From: Ignavibacteria bacterium
Lineage (GTDB): Bacteria; Bacteroidota; Ignavibacteria; Kapaibacteriales; UBA2268
Length of the DNA: 64,000 nt
NCBI GenBank assembly: GCA_012518115.1
Contig: JAAYTD010000013.1
Coordinates: forward strand, 64,179 to 128,178
Direction of reading: 5' to 3'
Below, piece after piece: positions 5,260-27,719 of the stretch. How positions within the stretch are numbered: the stretch's first letter is position 1; each line of letters opens with the position of its first letter. The notes under the pieces were generated by a model. It saw only the letters and a list, made by a program, of their open reading frames with translations, had not been told where the DNA came from and made no database searches. The position numbers and the translations under genes were made by a program.

Positions 5260-6015
5260 TTATTCTGGCATTGCTTTCCAAGGAACAATGCCGACACTTG
5301 CAGTTTTACCTGTTTTTGTGGTAAATTCTACATTCACAAGTCCAAATTTATGATTTGCAAAATAAGTTATTTTTTCAATAAACGGTTCATTTACAATTTC
5401 TTCGACTTTTGTTACTTTAATTTTCCACCAAACAAGATCATAGCTTTCCTTGTCTTCATCTTTATAAACAACAGTTCTAACAAACTTTTCACCTTGAGAA
5501 TTAACAAACTCATATTTATCGCCAACTTTACAATTATATTTTATAAGTGTAAACGGTTTTATAGGGTCGTGAAGAAAGCCTTGAATTCCTTGATCTGTAA
5601 TTTTTGTTTTGATATCGTATTCAAAAAAACTGTTTTGCGAATCGGAAGTATCTAATTTAAAGTTATACTTTTTTTTCATCGCATCAATCCAAGCATTTTT
5701 TACATCTACGTCAATGGTTTCTAAACCTAAAAGTGTATCTAAAATTAACTTAGCTTTTTTGTCAAAATTAACTTTTAGATGTATTGTAACAATACCTTCT
5801 TCATTTTTTGTTACAAATGCTTTTGGTTCAAATTTTCCATCTTTAAAATCACCGATTTTTTGATAAATCCCATATTCAGCACCTACTTCATTTTGTGGAA
5901 GATTCCAATTTCCTCCTAAAGTATTCGGGTCTTCTGCAATTTCTGTTTCGCAGGAAGAAAACAGTATAGCAAGAAGAATAAGTGATAAAATTAAATAGAA
6001 ATTATGCTTATACAT
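5260..6015 (-). CDS. Hypothetical lipoprotein
   Basis: N-terminal lipobox LILLAILFSSC; no recognisable domain by eye. Confidence 0.5.
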   Translation of the reverse strand: MYKHNFYLILSLILLAILFSSCETEIAEDPNTLGGNWNLPQNEVGAEYGIYQKIGDFKDGKFEPKAFVTKNEEGIVTIHLKVNFDKKAKLILDTLLGLETIDVDVKNAWIDAMKKKYNFKLDTSDSQNSFFEYDIKTKITDQGIQGFLHDPIKPFTLIKYNCKVGDKYEFVNSQGEKFVRTVVYKDEDKESYDLVWWKIKVTKVEEIVNEPFIEKITYFANHKFGLVNVEFTTKTGKTASVGIVPWKAMPE

Positions 6016-6139
6016 AAAACACCTCTAAAAAGTAAAATAAACGAAAGAATTAATTTGTAAATATATATATAAATTATCAAAAAATAAGCAAGAAGATAAA
6101 AAATAGTTTTGTTTTTGTTTGTGTTTTAATTTTATCTAT

Positions 6140-6520
6140 AATATTGGCACTCCTTAATTTGACCTCTCCAAACTCTCCCAAAGAGGGGAATTTTAAAACT
6201 CTCCTCCTTTGGAGGAGCCGGAGGAGGTTATTAATTATATATCCTTAAAAATCCCGTAGGGATGACATGATTAATAGACTACCCCGTCAAGCTAGCGTTT
6301 GCCACCCCTTCGTCCCGAAGGGGAATTTGTAGCCCGACCTTCAGGCAAGTATAATTTTAAAAATCATACTAATCATACAAATCCCATAAATCATAGTTCA
6401 GACAATTTATAGACTACCCCGTCAAACTTCGTTTGCCACCCCTTCGTCCCGAAGGGGAATTTGTAGCCTGACCTTTATGGAAAAACATCACATAAATCAT
6501 ACAAATCGCAGTTCAGACAA
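6140..6520. repeat. Intergenic mosaic of GC-rich palindromic repeat modules (REP/BIME-like), including two tandem ~125-bp units each containing gactaccccgtcaa...gccaccccttcgtcccgaaggggaatttgtagcc
   Basis: Seen in sequence: modules at 6225-6263 (atccttaaaaatcccgtagggat) and at 6277-6339 and 6412-6473 (near-identical). The same modules recur in reverse complement at 15125-15600 and at 23521-23590. Confidence 0.7.
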
Positions 6521-6560
6521 AAAAAAGACTGTCCGATTTTTTTCGCACAGTCTTTTTTTA
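6519..6560. terminator. Rho-independent terminator downstream of rocA (minus strand); A-run/hairpin/T-run, bidirectional in form
   Basis: aaaaaaaa-GACTGTCCGA-ttttttt-TCGCACAGTC-ttttttt; imperfect ~10-bp stem. Confidence 0.55.
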
Positions 6561-6582
6561 TTAATTTAGCCTTTTTCTATTA

Positions 6583-8127
6583 TTAGCGAGATGCTATAGA
6601 TTTTCCTTGTAAGAACAGCATCAAATAGTCGCGGCTACCAGCTTTAGAATCTGTTCCACTCATATTGAAACCGCCGAATGGATGAACATCTACCATAGCT
6701 CCTGTACATTTTCTATTAATATATAGGTTACCTACGTGGAATTCATTTTTAGCGCGTTCAATTTTATGAGGATTAAGTGTAAATACTGAACCTGTTAATC
6801 CGTAAATAGTATTATTTGCAACACTTAGTGAATGATCGTAATCCCGTGTTTTGCAAACAGCAAGAACTGGACCGAAGATTTCTTCTTGCATTATGCGAGC
6901 ATTTTCATCAACATCAATAAAGATTGTTGGTTCAATGTAATATCCGTTTGTACTTGAATCAACTTTTTTGCCACCGCATAACAATTTTCCTTCTTTTTTT
7001 CCTATTTCTATATATTCTAGAACTGATTCATATTGACTCTTGTTAGCGCAAGGTCCTGCTTGTGCATCATCAATAGGATCGCCTACTTTAATAGCTTCTG
7101 TTTTTTCTTTAATCATTTTCACAAATTCATCATAAACTTTTTCATCTACGATAGCACGTGAACAAGCGGAGCATTTTTGTCCTTGGAAACCAAAAGCGGA
7201 GCCTACTACAGCAGTAGCTGCTTCTTCAAGATTTGCTTCGCTATCTACAACTATTGCATCTTTTCCGCCCATTTCTGCGATAACGCGTTTAATCCAGATT
7301 TGTCCCGGAGAAACAACGTTTGCTCTTTCGAAAATGCGTAATCCGACATCTTTCGAGCCTGTGAAAGATATGAAGCGAGTTTTTGGATGTTCTACTATAT
7401 AATCACCTGTTTCTGAACCACTTGCAACTAAGAAGTTAAGTACACCGTCAGGAAGTCCAACTTTTTTAAATATATCAACTAAAAGCCACGCCATCATAGG
7501 TGTATCTGATGATGGTTTCAATACAACAGTATTTCCTGTTACTATAGCGGAAGTTGTAATTCCTGTCATAATTGCGAATGGGAAGTTCCAAGGTGGAATT
7601 ACTACGCCAACTCCAAGTGGGATATATTTATATTCGTTAATTTCGCCTGGGAAAGGTGTTAAATCTTGATTTTTTGAATAGCGAATAGCTTCACGTCCGT
7701 AAAACTCAAGAAAATCTATTGCTTCGCAAGTATCAGCGTCAGCTTCAAGGTAATTTTTTCCTATTTCGGAAATCATCCAAGCATTTATTTCTAAACGACG
7801 TTTTCTAACTTCTTCAGCAGCGCGGAACAAATAATTTGCGCGAATTTCTGCAGGAACAGTTTTCCATGTTTCAAAAGCTTTTGATGCAGCTTCAATAGCT
7901 TCATTAGCATCTTTTTGACCTGCTTTTTGAAAAGTTCCTATAACTTCTGTAGGTCTTGCTGGATTTGTAGAAATTGTTTTTTTGTCGGTAAAGACTTCTT
8001 TACCATTAATAATATTTGGAAATTCTTTGCCAAATTGTGAGCGAACAAAATCAATTGCTTCTCTTTGACTACGCTTGATTTCAGCGTTTGAAAAATCTAA
8101 ATAAGTTGCATTGCTAAATTCTAACAT
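6583..8127 (-). CDS. rocA: 1-pyrroline-5-carboxylate (L-glutamate gamma-semialdehyde) dehydrogenase
   Basis: 514 aa. Long blocks nearly identical to Bacillus RocA-type P5CDH (EADADTCEAIDFLEFY, KRVIAEMGGKD, ARIMQEEIFGPVLAVCK, FHVGNLYINRKCTGAMV, PFGGFNMSGTDSKAG). ALDH-superfamily catalytic Cys present (GQKCSACSRA). Confidence 0.9.
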   Translation of the reverse strand: MLEFSNATYLDFSNAEIKRSQREAIDFVRSQFGKEFPNIINGKEVFTDKKTISTNPARPTEVIGTFQKAGQKDANEAIEAASKAFETWKTVPAEIRANYLFRAAEEVRKRRLEINAWMISEIGKNYLEADADTCEAIDFLEFYGREAIRYSKNQDLTPFPGEINEYKYIPLGVGVVIPPWNFPFAIMTGITTSAIVTGNTVVLKPSSDTPMMAWLLVDIFKKVGLPDGVLNFLVASGSETGDYIVEHPKTRFISFTGSKDVGLRIFERANVVSPGQIWIKRVIAEMGGKDAIVVDSEANLEEAATAVVGSAFGFQGQKCSACSRAIVDEKVYDEFVKMIKEKTEAIKVGDPIDDAQAGPCANKSQYESVLEYIEIGKKEGKLLCGGKKVDSSTNGYYIEPTIFIDVDENARIMQEEIFGPVLAVCKTRDYDHSLSVANNTIYGLTGSVFTLNPHKIERAKNEFHVGNLYINRKCTGAMVDVHPFGGFNMSGTDSKAGSRDYLMLFLQGKSIASR

Positions 8128-19440: not shown

Positions 19441-20010
19441 TTATTGATTAAAAAGATCTTTAGCACTTATATTTTGTCTTTCAACTTCATTCGCTTCAAA
19501 AGAAGGTTTTGGTTTCATTCCCATTATAGCCGCAAAAATGTTAGTAGGAAACATTTGTACTGCATTATTATAGATGTTAATAGAAGCGTTGAATGCTCTA
19601 CGTGAAGCAGAAATTTGTTCTTCCACTTCGTTCATTGCACCTTGCAACTGTAGGAAATTTGTATTTGCTTTTAATTCAGGATAGTTTTCTACAGCTACAT
19701 TGATAGCGCGCAATGCATTGTTTAATTCATTATTTAAAGCGATTTGTTCATTTTCATTTAATTTGCCACTTATAGCTTTTGTTCGCAATTCCGTAACTCT
19801 TGTTAAAGTTTCTTGTTCATGTTTCATATATTGCTTAACAGTAGCTATTAAGTTAGGAATTAAATCGTAACGTTTTTTAAGATAAGCATCAATAGAAGCA
19901 AAAGCGTTTGTTACTTGGTTACGCTTAGAAATTAATGAATTATACATAATAATAAAAATTAATGCAATTAATGCAATAGCCACAATAATAATTATTGTTG
20001 TTGTTGTCAT
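19441..20010 (-). CDS. lemA: LemA family protein
   Basis: 189 aa; N-terminal TM then the LemA core (YDLIPNLIATVKQY...VENYPELKANTNFLQLQ). Confidence 0.85.
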   Translation of the reverse strand: MTTTTIIIIVAIALIALIFIIMYNSLISKRNQVTNAFASIDAYLKKRYDLIPNLIATVKQYMKHEQETLTRVTELRTKAISGKLNENEQIALNNELNNALRAINVAVENYPELKANTNFLQLQGAMNEVEEQISASRRAFNASINIYNNAVQMFPTNIFAAIMGMKPKPSFEANEVERQNISAKDLFNQ

Positions 20011-20204: not shown

Positions 20205-23200
20205 ATGACACGAAGAATTACTAAATTAACAAACTTTTTGCTAATACCTTTAGCATTATTTATTTTCATTTCTCAGTCTGCTCTTTCTGCTGGCTTAATA
20301 ACAAATTCAAAGTTAAAAGAATGGATAAAATCTAATACAGATCAATTACCGGGAGTTGCTGTAAATTCAGATGGCGGGATAGATAATACTACAGCAAACT
20401 TAGAAGCATTAGCAAAAATAAATGAGTTAGATTGCAGTAAGGCCGGACTTACTACCATAGACGAATTAATTAGACATATGTCAGGTTTGGAGCAGTTAGA
20501 TTGTTCTGACAATCCTTTAACTGGATTAGATGTAAGTAACAATATAAATTTAAAAAGATTATATTGTTGGCGTAATCAACTAGCTAGCTTAGATCTAAGC
20601 AACAATAAAAAATTAGAAGAATTGTGTTGTCCTGAAAACCAACTAACTAGCTTAAGTGTGAGTAATATTACAGGAATAACATATTTGTATTGTATGGAAA
20701 ATCAACTAACTAGCTTAAGCCTTAACAATACAACAGCTTTAGTTTGTTTAATGTGTTCTGGAAATCAAATAAGTAGCTTAGATGTAAGTACGAATAACAA
20801 ACTAGAAGAATTGTATTGTGACGATAACATTCTAGTTACATTAGATATTAGTTCACTATCAAGTTTAGAAGGCTTAAATTGTTGTAATCAAGCTACAGGT
20901 TTTACTGTGTACTTAACTGAAGAACAAAAAAACAAATTTACTGAACAAAATTATTGTGATGCTATACTATCCCTGTACAAGCCTATTCCTAACCAATTAA
21001 TAAAAGATCAAAAGTTAAAAGAATGGATAAAAGCTAATAAGAATAAACTACCTGGAGTTGTTATAAATGAAGATGGTGGAATAGACAGCACTACAGCGAA
21101 CTTAGAAGCATTAGCAAAAATAAATGAGTTAGATTGCAGGGAGGCCGGACTTACTACCATAAACGAATTAATTAGACACATGCTAGGTTTGGAGAAGTTA
21201 GATTGTGCTGACAATCCTTTAACTGGATTAGATATAAGTAACAACATAAATTTAGAAGTAATATCTTGTTGGAATAATCAAATAGGTAGCTTAGATTTAA
21301 GTAACAACACAGAATTAAAAGAGTTAGATTGTTCTAAAAATCAATTAACAGAGTTAAATGTAAGTCTCACCGTAAAATTAGAAGATTTGAAGTGTTCTGA
21401 CAATCAATTAACAGATTTAGATGTAAGTTACATCGTAAAATTAGAAGATTTGAAGTGTTCTGGCAATCAATTAACTGATTTAGATTTAAGTAACAACACA
21501 GAATTAATAGAACTAGATTGTTCTGGCAATCAACTAACTAAATTAGGTGTAAGTAACAGCAAAGAATTAGAAAAATTAGATTGTTCTGGCAATAAACTAA
21601 CTAGCTTAAAGATAAATGATAAAAAAACAAATAAAACGAATTTATGTTTAAGTAGCAACACAGAATTAAAAGAGTTGGATTGTTCTAATAATCAATTAAC
21701 TGAATTAGATGTAAGTAACAACACAGGATTAGAAAAATTTCGTTGTAACGATAACATTCTTGATAACTTAGATATTAGTCCGCTATCAGATTTAGTAGAG
21801 CTACAATGCTGTAATCAAGCGGCAGGTTTTATTCTGTATTTAACTGAAGAACAAAAAAACAAGTTTACTGAAGAAGATTATTGTGATGCTATACTAAATG
21901 CAGTTTCTAATGAATTAATAACAAATTCAAAGTTAAAAGAATGGATAAAATCCCATAAAGATCAATTGCCAGGAGTTGTTATAAATGAAGACGGTGGAAT
22001 AAATAACACTACAGCAAACTTAGAAGCGCTAGCAAAAATAAACAGTTTAGAATGCAATAATTCCGAACTTACCAGCATAAATGAATTAATTAGACATATG
22101 TCAAATTTAAAGAGTTTAATCTGTAACAACAATTCTTTGACTGAATTAGATGTAAGTAAAAACATAGAATTAGAAATTTTGGATTGTTCTGACAATCAAC
22201 TAACTAGCTTAGACCTAACAAATAATATAAATCTAATACAATTAGTTTGTTCTAATAATCAACTAACTAGCTTAGATGTAAGTAAAAATACAAACATAAT
22301 GCTTTTTGTATGTTCGGGCAATCAATTAACTGGTTTAGACGTAAGTAACAACACGGGATTAGAATACTTGGATTGTTCTGACAATAAATTAACCGATTTA
22401 GATTTAAGTAAAAATACAGAATTAAAAGAGTTAGATTGTTCTCATAATCAATTAACTGAATTAGACGTAAGTAACAACACCGGCTTAGAAAGCTTGGATT
22501 GCTCTGACAATAAATTAATTCAAATTACTGGTTCCTTTGCATCATCTCGCATGGACTGTTCTCATAATCAATTAACTGAATTAGATGTAAGTAACAACAC
22601 CGGATTAGAAAGCTTAGATTGTTCTCATAATCAATTAACTAAGTTAGATGTAAGTAAAAATACAGAATTAAAAGAGTTGGATTGTTCTCATAATCAATTA
22701 ACCGATTTAGACGTAAGTAACAACACGGGATTAACAGGGTTAGATTGTTCTAATAATCAACTAACTGATTTAGATTTAAGTAAGAATACAGAATTAACAG
22801 AGTTAGATTGTTCTAATAATCAATTAACTGATTTAGATGTAAGTAACAACACGGGATTAACAGGGTTAGATTGTTCTCACAATCAACTAACTGATTTAGA
22901 TTTAAGTAAGAATACAGAATTAACAAAGTTGGATTGTTCTCATAATCAATTAACTGAATTAGATGTAAGTAAAAAAATACAATTAGATACATTGTTTTGT
23001 AATAATAATCAATTAGCCGAGTTAGATGTAAGTAAAAATATAGAATTAAAAAATTTGCGTTGTAACGATAACATTCTTAACAACTTAGATATTATCCCAC
23101 TAATAAAATTAGCGGATCTAAACTGTTGTAATCAGTTGGAAAGTTTTATTCTCTATTTAACTAAAGGACAAAAAGGCATATTTACTGAGCTACACTATTG

Positions 23201-23456
23201 CGATGCTATACTTAAAGAAGACAAAAGCATTTGTGAAATAGAATGGTTAGATATTCATCCTAATCCTACTGCAGGCAAGATCTTTATTGATAGTAAATTC
23301 ATTTCCGACGAAATAAAGATATTAAATTTAGCAGGCGAAGTTTTATATAGAGAAGCGCTTAACGCTGAAAAAACAGAAATTGATATTTCAAATCTGCCTT
23401 CTGGTGTGTATTTCGTAATCACAAAAGGAAAGATAGGAAAAGTTATTAAAAATTAG
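20205..23456 (+). CDS. Secreted leucine-rich-repeat (LRR) protein with three tandem capped LRR super-domains and a T9SS-type C-terminal sorting domain
   Basis: Signal peptide. 22-aa LRRs (LDCSxNQLTxLDVSNNTxLExL) in three blocks, each opening with NSKLKEWIKSxxDQLPGVxxNxDGGIDxTTANLEALAKIN and closing with CCNQAxGFxxYLTEEQKNKFTExxYCDAIL. C-terminal ~75 aa HPNPTAGKIFIDS...GVYFVITKGKIGKVIKN is CTD-like. Confidence 0.85.
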   Translation: MTRRITKLTNFLLIPLALFIFISQSALSAGLITNSKLKEWIKSNTDQLPGVAVNSDGGIDNTTANLEALAKINELDCSKAGLTTIDELIRHMSGLEQLDCSDNPLTGLDVSNNINLKRLYCWRNQLASLDLSNNKKLEELCCPENQLTSLSVSNITGITYLYCMENQLTSLSLNNTTALVCLMCSGNQISSLDVSTNNKLEELYCDDNILVTLDISSLSSLEGLNCCNQATGFTVYLTEEQKNKFTEQNYCDAILSLYKPIPNQLIKDQKLKEWIKANKNKLPGVVINEDGGIDSTTANLEALAKINELDCREAGLTTINELIRHMLGLEKLDCADNPLTGLDISNNINLEVISCWNNQIGSLDLSNNTELKELDCSKNQLTELNVSLTVKLEDLKCSDNQLTDLDVSYIVKLEDLKCSGNQLTDLDLSNNTELIELDCSGNQLTKLGVSNSKELEKLDCSGNKLTSLKINDKKTNKTNLCLSSNTELKELDCSNNQLTELDVSNNTGLEKFRCNDNILDNLDISPLSDLVELQCCNQAAGFILYLTEEQKNKFTEEDYCDAILNAVSNELITNSKLKEWIKSHKDQLPGVVINEDGGINNTTANLEALAKINSLECNNSELTSINELIRHMSNLKSLICNNNSLTELDVSKNIELEILDCSDNQLTSLDLTNNINLIQLVCSNNQLTSLDVSKNTNIMLFVCSGNQLTGLDVSNNTGLEYLDCSDNKLTDLDLSKNTELKELDCSHNQLTELDVSNNTGLESLDCSDNKLIQITGSFASSRMDCSHNQLTELDVSNNTGLESLDCSHNQLTKLDVSKNTELKELDCSHNQLTDLDVSNNTGLTGLDCSNNQLTDLDLSKNTELTELDCSNNQLTDLDVSNNTGLTGLDCSHNQLTDLDLSKNTELTKLDCSHNQLTELDVSKKIQLDTLFCNNNQLAELDVSKNIELKNLRCNDNILNNLDIIPLIKLADLNCCNQLESFILYLTKGQKGIFTELHYCDAILKEDKSICEIEWLDIHPNPTAGKIFIDSKFISDEIKILNLAGEVLYREALNAEKTEIDISNLPSGVYFVITKGKIGKVIKN

Positions 23457-23480: not shown

Positions 23481-23520
23481 AAACTGCTTATTGTTTTTTT
23501 CAGTAAGCAGTTTTTTTTTG
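23481..23520 (+). terminator. Rho-independent terminator after the LRR gene
   Basis: AAACTGCTTAttgtttttttcagTAAGCAGTTT followed by T9. Confidence 0.7.
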
Positions 23521-23657: not shown

Positions 23658-25280
23658 TTACAGCATATCTATCAGCTTTTGGACTGATTCTTTCGCATCG
23701 CCCAACAATAGATGCACACCTTTTTCTTTTTTATACAGCGGATTATCAACCCCTGCATAGCCTGGATTAAGGTCAAAGTTACAAATGAAAATCTCTTTAG
23801 CTTGATCGACATTCAATACCGGCATTCCATAAATCGGTGTATCCACAGCGTCGCGCGCTGCTGGGTTAAGCACGTCATTAGCTCCAATTACAATTACTGC
23901 ATCCGTATTTTTGAAGTCGTCATTTATAGCGTCCATTTCATACAGTTGTTCATAAGACACATCAGCTTCCGCTAGTAGCACGTTCATATGTCCGGGCATA
24001 CGACCTGCAACAGGGTGAATCGCATAACGAACTTTTGCACCTTTACTTTCCAACTTATCCGCTAGTTGTCTAACTAAGTGTTGCGCTTGTGCCAACGCCA
24101 TACCGTAACCGGGAACAATTATTACCGATTTCGCATTTTGTAGAACATCAGCGGAATTGTCTTTTTTAGTTTCAATAGTAGAAGTTTGCGATGTTTTACT
24201 GTCTAACATTGCAATCAATTTATTCACCGATTCTTTTGCATCGCCTAACAGCAAATGAACGCCTTTTTCTTTTTTATACAGCGGATTATCCACTCCCGCA
24301 TAACCGGGATTTAAGTCAAAGTTACAAATGAAAATCTCTTTTGCTTGATCGACATTCAATACTGGCATTCCATAAATCGGTGTATCCACAGCGTCGCGTG
24401 CTGCTGGGTTGAGTACGTCATTAGCTCCAATTACAATTACTGCATCCGTATTTTTGAAGTCGTCATTTATAGCGTCCATTTCATACAGTTGTTCATAAGA
24501 CACATCAGCTTCGGCTAATAATACGTTCATATGTCCGGGCATACGTCCAGCAACAGGGTGAATAGCGTAACGAACTTTTGCACCTTTACTTTCCAACTTA
24601 TCCACTAGTTGTCTAACTAAGTGTTGCGCTTGTGCCAACGCCATACCATAACCGGGAACAATAATAACCGATTTCGCATTTTGTAGAACATCAGCAGAAT
24701 TGTTTTTTTGAATTTCAGTAGCAGCAGTTTGCGATGGCTTACTGTCTAACATTGAAATCAATTTATTAACCGATTCTTTCGCATCGCCTAACAACAAATG
24801 CACACCTTTTTCTTTTTTGTAAAGCGGATTATCCACTCCAGCATAGCCGGGATTTAAGTCGTAGTTACAAATAAATACATTTTTTGCTTGATCGACATTC
24901 AATACAGGCATTCCATAAATAGGTGTATCCACAGCATCACGAGCAGCAGGATTAAGTACGTCATTAGCTCCAATTACAATTACTGCATCCGTATTTTTGA
25001 AGTCGTCATTTATAGCGTCCATTTCGTACAGTTGTTCATAAGACACATCAGCTTCCGCTAGTAGCACATTCATATGTCCGGGCATACGACCTGCAACAGG
25101 GTGAATAGCATAGCGAACTTGTGCTCCTTTACTTTCTAACTTATCCGCTAGTTGTCTAACTAAATGTTGCGCTTGTGCCAATGCCATACCATAACCGGGA
25201 ACAATAATAACCGATTTCGCATTTTGTAGAACATTTTCAGACGATGTCTGTTTTGTTTCCACTTTTTCTTCTTTTTTAGG
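23658..25280. repeat. Three tandem ~540-bp direct repeats (about 93-95% identical by eye) inside pntB, each encoding one dIII domain
   Basis: Seen in sequence: units approximately 23658-24200, 24200-24740, 24740-25280; differences are mostly synonymous or conservative substitutions. Confidence 0.85.
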
Positions 25281-26168
25281 TTTAGCGGCAACAGCTTGTG
25301 TTTTTTCAGTTTTTTTGCCTGCTACAGATGTTTTTCCAGTCAGAATATCCATCAAGCTTCTATTCATTGAGCGGCACATAATCTGTGTAAGGAACAAGCC
25401 CGATGCTCCAACAATTCCCCCAACTGAAACCAAAAGTATATCACTTATCGCCATACCTGCAATTGCACCAGCAACACCACTTAGCGAGTTAAGCAATGAT
25501 ATAGTAATAGGCATATCTGCACCACCGACACGGATAGCAAAAGCGTATCCAAAAAGGGTGCTTATTCCAATACTTAAAAACAATATTATTGTAATATCGG
25601 TAGATGGATCTATTATATCGCCGATAAAAGCAGAGTAAACAACAGTAACTAACAGAATGATAAGACTAAAGTTAAGAATTGCGGAATGATTTTTCCAAAT
25701 TACTGGTCGTTGAGACAAAAGTTTGTGCAGTTTTCCTGCTGCTACTAAACTTCCAACAAGAGTAACAATTCCGACAACTATTGCTAATACTGCTGTTACG
25801 TTTGAAAAAATTGGATATTCTTGTTCTGGCGCCTGTCCTATTCCGAGTAAGGTAAGAATTCCCACCAAAGCCGAAGCTAAGCCTCCTACACCATTAAGCA
25901 AAGCAACTAGCTGTGGCATCTCAATCATTTTTACCCTGACGGCAAACATACTGCCAACAATAACACCTGCAAGCATATAAATGTATATACTTGCAACCGA
26001 AATTATTTCATTATATAGTAATGTAATAAGTATTCCTACGAACACACTTATTGCACTGAGGATATTTCCTGCAACGGCAGTTTTTACCTTGCTCATCATA
26101 GAAATACCCACCAATACTAATATTGATAGTATAGCACAAATTACTAAATAGACTGTTGAAGTTATCAT
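23658..26168 (-). CDS. pntB: NAD(P) transhydrogenase beta subunit with three tandem NADP(H)-binding dIII domains
   Basis: 836 aa: ~290-aa polytopic membrane domain, then three ~180-aa copies of SVIIVPGYGMALAQAQH...GRMPGHMNVLLAEADV...IVIGANDVLNPAA...GMPVLNVDQAK. The 4-nt overlap (ATGA) with the upstream pntA-II gene is typical of pnt operons. Confidence 0.9.
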   Translation of the reverse strand: MITSTVYLVICAILSILVLVGISMMSKVKTAVAGNILSAISVFVGILITLLYNEIISVASIYIYMLAGVIVGSMFAVRVKMIEMPQLVALLNGVGGLASALVGILTLLGIGQAPEQEYPIFSNVTAVLAIVVGIVTLVGSLVAAGKLHKLLSQRPVIWKNHSAILNFSLIILLVTVVYSAFIGDIIDPSTDITIILFLSIGISTLFGYAFAIRVGGADMPITISLLNSLSGVAGAIAGMAISDILLVSVGGIVGASGLFLTQIMCRSMNRSLMDILTGKTSVAGKKTEKTQAVAAKPKKEEKVETKQTSSENVLQNAKSVIIVPGYGMALAQAQHLVRQLADKLESKGAQVRYAIHPVAGRMPGHMNVLLAEADVSYEQLYEMDAINDDFKNTDAVIVIGANDVLNPAARDAVDTPIYGMPVLNVDQAKNVFICNYDLNPGYAGVDNPLYKKEKGVHLLLGDAKESVNKLISMLDSKPSQTAATEIQKNNSADVLQNAKSVIIVPGYGMALAQAQHLVRQLVDKLESKGAKVRYAIHPVAGRMPGHMNVLLAEADVSYEQLYEMDAINDDFKNTDAVIVIGANDVLNPAARDAVDTPIYGMPVLNVDQAKEIFICNFDLNPGYAGVDNPLYKKEKGVHLLLGDAKESVNKLIAMLDSKTSQTSTIETKKDNSADVLQNAKSVIIVPGYGMALAQAQHLVRQLADKLESKGAKVRYAIHPVAGRMPGHMNVLLAEADVSYEQLYEMDAINDDFKNTDAVIVIGANDVLNPAARDAVDTPIYGMPVLNVDQAKEIFICNFDLNPGYAGVDNPLYKKEKGVHLLLGDAKESVQKLIDML

Positions 26169-26476
26169 TTGCTATCTCCTTCCTTTTTCTTATGAAACAT
26201 TTTGAGCATTCGGTGTGTAACACCAAATCCGCCTACTACGTTTACCGTAGCAGCTATTACTGCCAAGCCACCCAAAATTTGTCCTAGCGCAATACTTTGG
26301 TCTTTATATAATACCGACAAACCAACGGCTGACACTGCTCCCAAAATGGTTATACCTGATAGAGCATTCATTCCCGACATTAGCGGAGTATGCAGCAAAC
26401 TCGGTACGTTTTTAATAATAGAATAACCAACAAAAGTGGCAACAATAAAAATTAAGATTAAATAAATTGGGTTCAT
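26165..26476 (-). CDS. pntAB: NAD(P) transhydrogenase alpha subunit part 2 (small membrane subunit)
   Basis: 103 aa, three to four TM helices (MNPIYLILIFIVATFVGYSIIKNVPSLLHTPLMSGMNALSGI); positioned between pntAA and pntB. Confidence 0.8.
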   Translation of the reverse strand: MNPIYLILIFIVATFVGYSIIKNVPSLLHTPLMSGMNALSGITILGAVSAVGLSVLYKDQSIALGQILGGLAVIAATVNVVGGFGVTHRMLKMFHKKKEGDSK

Positions 26477-26558
26477 TGATACAATGTTTGATTTATTTAT
26501 AAAAACATAGAGACGCGAATTTCGCGTCTCTACTTATATTATTATGTTTACTTGATTA

Positions 26559-27719
26559 TTATTTTAATCCCATAGCTTCTCGTGTACCCGCGTGAACTAT
26601 ATCGTTGTTATGTGTAACAAGTGTAGAGCGTACAATCTCATCGTTCAAATCTAAAGAGATTTTACCATCTTTCACCAAGTATTTTACAATGTTATAAATA
26701 TTTTGTGAAAACATCCATGTAGAGCTTGTAGGTAATAAGCCAGGAATATTTTTAATTCCCATAATAGTTACTCCATGAATTACCTCTTTTTTACCTGGAG
26801 GAGTTATAGCACAGTTTCCGCCTTGGTCAATGGATATATCAACAATAACAGATCCTTTTTTCATCGTTTTTACCATATCTTCAGTAATCAATATTGGAGC
26901 AATTCTACCAGGTATTAACGCACTACAAAATATAATATCCATATCTTTTATAGCTTCTGCTAATACTTCACGCTCTTTCTTCAGCCACTCCTCAGGAAGA
27001 GTCTGTGCATATCCACCTGTGCCTACAGCAAGTTCAGCTGGAACACCTGTTTCAATTACTTTTGCACCTAAACTTTGTGCTTGTTCACTTGCAGCAGGGC
27101 GTATGTCAACAGCGTGAGTTACTGCACCCAAACGTTTTGCAGTAGCTAATGCTTGCAAGCCAGCAACACCTGTTCCAATAACTAATACGTTTGCAGGTTT
27201 TGATACACCTACAGCTGTGAACATTTGCGGCATAAAAATAAACAAATCGTCTGCTGCCATTATTATTCCCTTATATCCAGCACAAGTACTCATGGTTGTG
27301 AGTGCATCCATATTTTGTGCACGTGATATGCGAGGAATACTATCAAGAGTAAGACTAATAATACCGTTCTTTGCTAGTTTTTTTACCATTTCGTGGTTAA
27401 CCGGCGATGCAGGGTGTATAAATGTAATTAAATACTGACCGCTATGCATCATATCAGCTTCGTGAACACCAAGTTTTTCATTAAAAAGTGGCTCTTTAAC
27501 TTTTAGTATTAAAGATGATTTTTCAAAAATTTCTTTAGCATCTGTAATAATCTGTGCGCCTGCTTCACGATATTGATCGTCGTAGAAAAGAGATCCTACA
27601 CCGGCACCGGCTTCGACCAACACAGTCATTCCGTCTTGCACAAACTTTTTTACTGTTTCGGGGGTAGCAGCTACGCGTGCTTCGCCCGGCATGATTTCTT
27701 TTGGAATACCTATAATCAT
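26559..27719 (-). CDS. pntAA: NAD(P) transhydrogenase alpha subunit part 1 (dI, alanine-dehydrogenase/PNT fold)
   Basis: 386 aa; MIIGIPKEIMPGEARVAATPETVKKFV N-terminus and Rossmann GxGxxG (VLVIGTGVAGLQA). Confidence 0.9.
   Translation of the reverse strand: MIIGIPKEIMPGEARVAATPETVKKFVQDGMTVLVEAGAGVGSLFYDDQYREAGAQIITDAKEIFEKSSLILKVKEPLFNEKLGVHEADMMHSGQYLITFIHPASPVNHEMVKKLAKNGIISLTLDSIPRISRAQNMDALTTMSTCAGYKGIIMAADDLFIFMPQMFTAVGVSKPANVLVIGTGVAGLQALATAKRLGAVTHAVDIRPAASEQAQSLGAKVIETGVPAELAVGTGGYAQTLPEEWLKKEREVLAEAIKDMDIIFCSALIPGRIAPILITEDMVKTMKKGSVIVDISIDQGGNCAITPPGKKEVIHGVTIMGIKNIPGLLPTSSTWMFSQNIYNIVKYLVKDGKISLDLNDEIVRSTLVTHNNDIVHAGTREAMGLK

Follow-up and report, generated by a model that had tools for sequence, protein, structure and literature searches.

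The window analysed here, a stretch of 64,000 nucleotides (nt) from contig JAAYTD010000013.1 of a genome deposited as 'Ignavibacteria bacterium', carries on its minus strand an operon, pntAA-pntAB-pntB, which encodes a three-subunit membrane nicotinamide-nucleotide transhydrogenase whose beta subunit holds at least three complete modules of the nucleotide-binding domain dIII on flexible linkers of ~16 amino acids (aa). Enzymes of this kind pass reducing equivalents between NADH and NADPH. The first gene, pntAA (26559..27719; all coordinates of the operon refer to features of the minus strand), codes for the soluble NAD(H)-binding dI subunit of 386 aa, as indicated by matches to Pfam AlaDh_PNT_N (E 6e-44) and AlaDh_PNT_C (E 2e-59) and to the NCBIfam PntA equivalog over residues 1-376. 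It is followed by pntAB (26165..26476; 103 aa; Pfam PNTB_4TM, E 3e-30), which provides the four-transmembrane (4-TM) part of the membrane domain dII, aligns with the alpha2 subunit of Thermus thermophilus and with the C-terminus of the Escherichia coli alpha subunit, and overlaps the start of pntB by 4 nt. As dI is encoded by pntAA as a polypeptide of its own and pntAB is likewise separate, the enzyme is of the three-subunit type.

The third gene, pntB (23658..26168; 836 aa plus stop), was delimited from the list of open reading frames (ORFs), Pfam and NCBIfam matches and homolog alignment. Its product starts with the dII membrane domain (aa 1-276, 25341..26168), which aligns with dII of the E. 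coli and T. thermophilus PntB proteins and is modelled by AlphaFold2 as helices over aa 4-276, followed by a hydrophilic linker of 33 aa rich in Lys, Glu and Thr (aa 277-309, 25242..25340), modelled as coil with a predicted local distance difference test (pLDDT) score below 50 over aa 258-308. Alignment of the copies with each other and with homologs then places dIII module 1 at aa 310-474 (24747..25241), module 2 at aa 491-655 (24204..24698) and module 3 at aa 672-836 (23661..24155). Between them lie inter-module linker 1 (aa 475-490, 24699..24746, DSKPSQTAATEIQKNN; coil, pLDDT <50 at aa 477-489) and linker 2 (aa 656-671, 24156..24203, DSKTSQTSTIETKKDN; coil, pLDDT <50 at aa 658-669). The AlphaFold2 model, obtained from an alignment of 15 sequences with a mean pLDDT of 64 and used solely for secondary structure and linker disorder, gives the three modules one common alpha/beta pattern, with low-confidence coil at the linkers.

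A repeat search found three direct repeats in pntB at a spacing of 543 nt, that is, with a period of 181 aa, which were missed by Tandem Repeats Finder because its longest period is 500. Pfam PNTB (PF02233) matches the product in three stretches (E = 0, 1064 bits), the best of which, aa 10-472, spans dII and the first dIII and covers profile positions 4-455 of 456, and the NCBIfam PntB equivalog NF006974 scores 819.7 bits against a cut-off of 689. The GYGMA motif occurs at aa 325, 506 and 687 and GRMPGHMNVLLAEA at aa 360, 541 and 722. The protein thus has the make-up of the PntB family, with dII followed by dIII in a full-length profile match and the dI and 4-TM partner genes directly upstream, but departs from the family norm of one dIII per beta subunit. 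In this regard, the first-pass annotation of this DNA, which had described one dII followed by three tandem dIII copies of ~180 aa encoded by ~540-bp direct repeats, was borne out by the repeat search, the Pfam stretches and the motif positions.

The module cores of 495 nt differ pairwise at 43-56 nt, with 33-38 synonymous versus 3-8 nonsynonymous codons, so that the scattered and mostly synonymous differences reported at first, including the examples quoted, proved correct in the alignment of the copies. Nei-Gojobori estimates between the modules give dS 0.42-0.54 and dN 0.015-0.035 (omega, dN/dS, 0.03-0.06), from which it follows that the modules are old and under strong purifying selection. 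The two inter-module linkers differ from each other by 7 nonsynonymous and 1 synonymous changes (omega about 1.9) and vary freely. Decay of the distal copies was considered and rejected on the low omega and the equal conservation by position detailed below; copies with disabling substitutions, the outcome that the first annotation named as fatal to its proposal, are likewise ruled out by the substitution pattern. The longest identical run between window copies is 68-98 nt, short enough for short reads to separate the three copies, and a spurious expansion is therefore excluded. The divergence had originally been taken to argue against a collapsed-read artefact; it speaks against expansion but does not extend to collapse, given that assemblies with near-identical flanks carry four or five units.

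Those assemblies come from the same organism. Five of them (L084 and L086-L089) show no difference from the window over 2.4 kb upstream including dII, and L084, L086, L087 and L088 are also identical to it over the 605-700 nt compared downstream; the downstream flank of L089 shows a few indels and substitutions in a gapped alignment. The arrays themselves differ. With units labelled by sequence, the window reads A-C-D and L084, L087 and L088 read A-B-C-D; the three units of L086 are differently composed, and L089 has five, A-B-B''-C-D, with homopolymer-type indels in both array and flank, as expected of an error-prone long-read assembly. Over its first ~360 nt unit B is exactly unit C, and in L084 it carries in addition variants that no other unit shows. 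The window array equals the four-unit version minus one unit, removed across the ~360-nt exact repeat, a sequence pattern that would fit either an assembly collapse or a real variant produced by unequal crossover. Because the missing unit is bounded by that exact repeat and the assemblies differ, three units represent either a minimum for the source organism or one variant or allele; the domain is triplicated in the window, as first described, but four or five units are found in other assemblies of the organism.

Problems of this kind recur in related loci. Contigs of metagenome-assembled genomes (MAGs) break or frameshift inside the dIII array in L030, L033, L065 and L080, and contigs end inside it in L001, L060, L064, L070, L071, L074-L077 and L079. 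As many MAG contigs break or frameshift there, public short-read assemblies systematically miscount or truncate multi-dIII genes.

The architecture is by no means restricted to this organism. In a homolog search of a collection of 5.8 billion proteins, all of the best 120 matches carry 3-5 dIII modules (three in 21, four in 91 and five in 7, with one ambiguous case), so that the idea of a unique oddity, implicit in the first-pass annotation, was not borne out. The sources among these best matches include Porphyromonas cangingivalis, P. bennonis, P. uenonis, P. circumdentaria, P. gingivicanis and Dysgonomonas massiliensis, together with Desulfovibrio intestinalis, Alkalicella caledoniensis and MAGs of Bacteroidales, Eubacteriales and Firmicutes. 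One 1003-aa protein with four modules is common to three P. cangingivalis assemblies, and another of 1010 aa, also with four, is encoded in the closed A. caledoniensis chromosome CP058559.1. Species-representative loci with complete ORFs have 1, 2, 3 or 4 modules in 13, 31, 19 and 6 cases, respectively. PntB proteins with 2-5 dIII modules occur widely among anaerobic Bacteroidales, Clostridia, Desulfovibrio and Anaerolineaceae, and closed isolate genomes are among the carriers. No description of a multi-dIII or KRS-less transhydrogenase (the KRS motif is dealt with below) was found in the literature searched, most subscription journals being outside its reach; the sequences are public and generically annotated, and the architecture seems to be undescribed in searchable literature. 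To this extent the early statement that no described equivalent was known stands, although the window is one case among many.

All related loci encode a PntAB of ~100 aa and a separate dI of ~385 aa, with the single exception of L044, a Christensenellaceae MAG (MSGY01000015.1, ~5506-8094) in which PntAB and PntB are fused into an 853-aa ORF with four TM segments, dII and two dIII modules. Linkers across the family have a median length of 20 aa, with Ala, Ser, Glu, Thr, Lys and Pro as abundant residues. Module number differs within genera, as in Proteiniphilum. In a tree of units, modules from the same protein, which are 73-100% identical to each other, group with one another; orthology by position can be seen between close relatives only, and the terminal copies are often the most divergent. 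Both the within-protein clustering of units and the mosaic nature of unit B point to arrays that are long-standing and whose copy number, as read from sequence comparison, changes fast by unequal recombination and gene conversion.

A second peculiarity concerns the nucleotide site. Residues K424-R425-S426 of the E. coli beta subunit form the 'KRS motif' within the NADPH site, and loops D and E reportedly make the site specific to NADP(H) rather than NAD(H) (PMC9529548); in the E. coli structure PDB 2BRU, Arg425 contacts NADP+. Where loop E of E. coli reads V-F-K-R-S-M-N-T-G-Y-A-G, that of window module 1 reads F-I-C-N-Y-D-L-N-P-G-Y-A-G, and modules 2 and 3 have C-N-F-D. The KRS motif is consequently replaced by N-Y-D in module 1 (24858-24866) and by N-F-D in modules 2 (24315-24323) and 3 (23772-23780). 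The remaining site is preserved: GYG (314-316), H345, R350, D392, GYAG (430-433) and D450 (E. coli numbering) are kept in all three window copies, and the clade consensus equals E. coli at 28 of 30 key dIII positions. The early claim that all copies retain their nucleotide-binding motifs is therefore right for GYGMA and GRMPGHMNVLLAEA but not for loop E.

The same replacement, N-[Y/F/L]-D (NxD hereafter), is present in every module of the 120 multi-dIII proteins and absent from all solved dIII structures, which read KRS or KRG. When 387 NxD units were compared column by column with 63 KRx units, the two groups were set apart most sharply by N in 100% versus K in 100% at position 424, Y, F or L versus R in 100% at 425, and D in 98% versus S or G at 426. 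Moreover, C occupies position 423 in 95% of the NxD units, Y occupies 439 in 100% (versus F in 81% of the KRx units) and K or R occupies 327 in 94% (versus 49%). The K/R at 327 and the F439 to Y change are the candidate residues, both weak, that might compensate in binding the 2'-phosphate. In a set of 150 representatives at 50% identity, the NxD proteins have one, two or at least three modules and complete KRx proteins always one; no KRS-type protein with several complete tandem dIII modules was encountered there, two fragments (P0208 and P0218) showing partial internal duplications only. In a tree built on dII and the first dIII, the NxD proteins are monophyletic (34/34), the forms with one or two modules being basal or interspersed and those with at least three derived. 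All multi-dIII PntB proteins encountered fall in one anaerobe-associated clade with 1-5 modules, where C-N-[Y/F/L]-D takes the place of [hydrophobic]-K-R-[S/G] in loop E.

The question of whether the modules of one protein are alike was addressed with 342 dIII units from proteins with 3-5 copies. Identity to the clade consensus was 79.8% for first, 79.2% for middle and 80.4% for last copies, and the 30 key residues were matched in 99.4-99.5% of cases in first, middle and last copies alike. Within-protein variation is concentrated in the N-terminal segment, helix 332-339, positions 440-447 and the C-terminal helix. Subfunctionalisation of proximal versus distal copies was rejected, as no recurrent first-copy signature was found and the best column reached 6 of 41 lineages. 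One particular case is P0083 (1234 aa), the fifth dIII of which is 62-65% identical to its four siblings and has N-L-N in loop E, GMAG in place of GYAG and an altered loop D; this module may be degenerate or re-purposed, judging by these substitutions.

The spacer between pntAA and pntAB holds a further element, a terminator- or attenuator-like 12-bp GC-rich hairpin followed by GUUUUUAUAA (26507..26533), detected by terminator scan and folding, with a U-tract, GUUUUU, after the hairpin. The spacer folds with -19.6 kcal/mol (z = -5.3), 0 of 200 shuffled versions being as stable, and the hairpin has no match in Rfam. Among deduplicated related operons, a stable spacer hairpin was found in 1 of 10, 12 of 27, 15 of 18 and 9 of 9 with one, two, three and four modules, a relationship with copy number (Spearman rho 0.59; Fisher p = 1.6e-5 for at least three modules versus one) that is uncorrected for phylogeny. 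Hairpins of different lineages show no relationship in sequence, and the spacers of most one-module operons measure 0-28 nt. Since the hairpin after pntAA is commoner as dIII number rises, this pattern suggests that dI dosage may be raised to match the number of dIII modules: a hairpin placed behind the dI gene, whether as a partial terminator or by stabilising the 3' end, would favour dI over the membrane subunits, as expected if each extra dIII engages dI. The change in dI:dIII stoichiometry proposed at first is in line with several intact dIII modules per beta subunit but may be partly offset, in view of the way in which the hairpin of the dI gene tracks copy number.

Regarding the surroundings of the operon, a gene for a 1083-aa leucine-rich-repeat protein with a C-terminal sorting domain of the type IX secretion system (T9SS) lies at 20205-23456 on the plus strand, convergent with pntB. 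It is made of 63/126-nt tandem repeats (22140-23053) and three larger internal repeats, and a hairpin is found between it and pntB at 23481-23513. Upstream of it, at 19441-20010 on the minus strand, there is an ordinary-looking gene of the LemA family. In the homolog database, the protein identical to the window PntB is P0031, which carries the NCBI label of an 'Ignavibacteria bacterium' MAG, and the nearest species-representative genomes belong to Salinivirgaceae and other Bacteroidales (89% identity, L004 and L058). With Bacteroidales as the nearest genomes and a neighbouring gene with a T9SS tail, the taxonomic label of P0031 and of the window looks doubtful.

How several dIII modules could serve one membrane domain has to be seen against the cycle of the canonical enzymes, in which dIII alternates between a face-down position on dII and a face-up position on dI. 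In the three-subunit enzymes there is the additional constraint that one dIII has to hold the free (dI)2 at all times (PMC13635403). On balance we judge it probable, if only just, that the modules are equivalent mobile carriers of hydride and nucleotide that take turns on the soluble dI and on the membrane dII, because omega is 0.03-0.06, conservation is equal by position, no first-copy signature exists and the linkers are flexible. Each module would dock face-down on dII for nucleotide exchange coupled to ion translocation and would turn face-up to transfer hydride at the soluble dI dimer, and several modules per membrane domain would keep both docking stations occupied. Moreover, multiple tethered dIII modules would hold the untethered dI dimer or dimers at the membrane, which would raise the throughput per dII, and their equivalence would relax the constraint on (dI)2; the hairpin after pntAA probably raises dI expression so that its supply matches dIII number. 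As for loop E, the change from KRS to NxD would alter, and most likely loosen, the hold of the site on the nucleotide's 2'-phosphate end, and a weaker hold would speed nucleotide exchange, so that the number of carriers, and not product release, would become limiting.

Several points weigh against such a scheme of equivalent carriers. The reach of a distal module to dII or dI is conjectural, and the AlphaFold2 model is of only moderate confidence. Gene conversion homogenises the copies, so that similar levels of conservation are to some extent foreseeable even where not all of them matter, and the diverged fifth module of P0083 indicates that not every module is equivalent in every lineage. 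The correlation of the hairpin with copy number lacks a phylogenetic correction, and hairpins also occur in some operons with one or two copies. Finally, were the nucleotide of NxD dIII not NADP(H), the whole functional framing would change.

Of the other explanations, the one that survives best, which we regard as unlikely but deserving of serious consideration, gives the cycle between dII and dI, with its coupling, to the membrane-proximal dIII only, the distal modules never visiting dII and serving to tether dI dimers and nucleotide near the membrane. It would account for the three-subunit organisation, with dI untethered, of all multi-dIII operons, it draws on the reported need of (dI)2 to stay bound to a dIII in such enzymes, and both the extra dI suggested by the hairpin where dIII is multiplied and the greater divergence of the terminal copies in some lineages agree with it. 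However, if distal modules were only captors of dI, the surface that does not face dI should drift, yet the low omega applies to the whole domain; first, middle and last copies are equally conserved; and no residue recurrently marks the proximal copy.

Less probable still, to the point that we would be surprised by it, is a change in the chemistry itself. The NxD dIII would in this case prefer NAD(H) or another dinucleotide, or else would bind NADP(H) so weakly as to exchange it without dII; given such weak binding, distal dIII-dI pairs would catalyse an uncoupled, soluble-like transhydrogenation, or the whole enzyme would have another substrate pair. A conserved acidic residue at the position of the ribose or 2'-phosphate is a classical signature of NAD-preferring sites, and the Asp at 426 of the clade fits it. 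The clade-wide replacement of K424 by N, of R425 by Y, F or L and of S426 by D affects precisely the motif assigned to the NADP(H) site, in loops held to define specificity (PMC9529548) and including the arginine that contacts NADP+ in 2BRU, and there is no solved structure with the NxD motif. On the other side, the rest of the nucleotide site is kept (G314-Y315-G316, H345, R350, D392, G430-Y431-A432 and D450), and Y439 together with K/R at 327 could bind the phosphate in another way. In addition, the dI sequence of the window keeps the Asp of the NAD(H)-type motif, and with dI so constituted an NAD/NAD enzyme would make no sense; these anaerobes, moreover, still need a source of NADPH.

That the extra modules are functionless, as neutral or decaying duplicates or as an assembly artefact, is largely refuted and highly improbable, for against the disagreement of same-organism assemblies on unit number (3, 4 or 5) and composition and the MAG contigs that break or frameshift in the array stand the age and constraint of the copies (dS 0.42-0.54, omega 0.03-0.06), the private variants of the extra unit in L084, the four modules of closed and replicate isolate genomes, and the recurrence of the trait across phyla with key residues intact.

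A bolder proposal can be formulated, which we put forward as tentative and rather doubtful: the multi-dIII NxD clade would be a mechanistically distinct, polyvalent transhydrogenase, in which one dII dimer services 6-10 tethered modules and several dI dimers, and in which the canonical 2'-phosphate clamp has been lost, with a consequent change in nucleotide affinity or specificity. This would set the clade apart from the paradigm of the E. coli and mitochondrial enzymes in its coupling stoichiometry, its rate-limiting step or even its substrate pair. The central issue for this family of enzymes is the way in which a lone dIII moves back and forth between dI and dII, and the coupling of that movement to ion translocation; the natural series of 1-5 modules offers a ready-made experiment on whether dII can service a dIII that is not directly tethered to it, bearing as well on strict anti-phase alternation and on the limits of turnover. 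In a similar way, the NxD clade, without KRS, provides a test of what sets the nucleotide specificity and affinity of dIII. The clade is frequent among anaerobes of the gut, the mouth and digesters (Porphyromonas, Dysgonomonadaceae, Clostridia, Desulfovibrio), and metabolic models currently treat its genes as an ordinary PntAB. A practical consequence is that dIII arrays counted from short-read assemblies are prone to be miscounted.

Among known systems, the PntAA/PntAB/PntB enzymes of T. thermophilus (PDB 4O9U) and Rhodospirillum rubrum have the same gene order and subunit split as the window. The window PntB aligns with that of T. thermophilus end to end through the first dIII (E 1.4e-87), and enzymes of this type share with it GYGMA, GRMPGHMNVLLAEA, D392 and GYAG; they differ in having one dIII, with KRG or KRS in loop E, against at least three with N-Y/F-D in the window. 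The best match among solved structures is E. coli PntAB (PDB 9L76 and 2BRU; E 4.5e-99), with apparently the same domain chemistry but with two subunits, a fusion of dI with the 4-TM segment, only one dIII, KRS and beta-His91. At the channel-histidine positions, the window has Asn in pntB (aa ~92, about 25891-25893) and Ser in the 'MNALSG' stretch of pntAB (aa 36-41). Asn at the position of E. coli beta-H91 is common to the T. thermophilus and window PntB proteins, whereas the alpha2-His42 of T. thermophilus is Ser in the window PntAB, and the non-histidine Asn/Ser pair is found in 57 of 59 scorable related loci. The absence of the channel histidines, with another coupling ion such as Na+, was considered as a trait of the clade and dropped, as the KRS-type loci L090 and L091 share the Ser/Asn pair.

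A comparison with unrelated machines is also pertinent. Tandem swinging-arm carriers are well established, with 1-3 lipoyl domains in the E2 component of 2-oxo-acid dehydrogenases and tandem acyl carrier proteins (ACPs) in polyunsaturated fatty acid (PUFA) synthases. As a functional analogy only, those arrays and that of the window consist of near-identical tandem mobile domains on flexible linkers of Ala, Pro and charged residues, in a number that varies between species, and the E2 and ACP domains shuttle an intermediate between two catalytic stations. There is no kinship in sequence or fold, and lipoyl and ACP carriers hold a covalent prosthetic group, whereas dIII, which is homologous to solved structures with bound NADP, binds a free dinucleotide non-covalently and must reload. 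The single-polypeptide transhydrogenases of protozoa, on the other hand, have their domains permuted and fused (dIIb-dIII-dI-dIIa) with one copy of each, while the enzyme of the window multiplies one of them.

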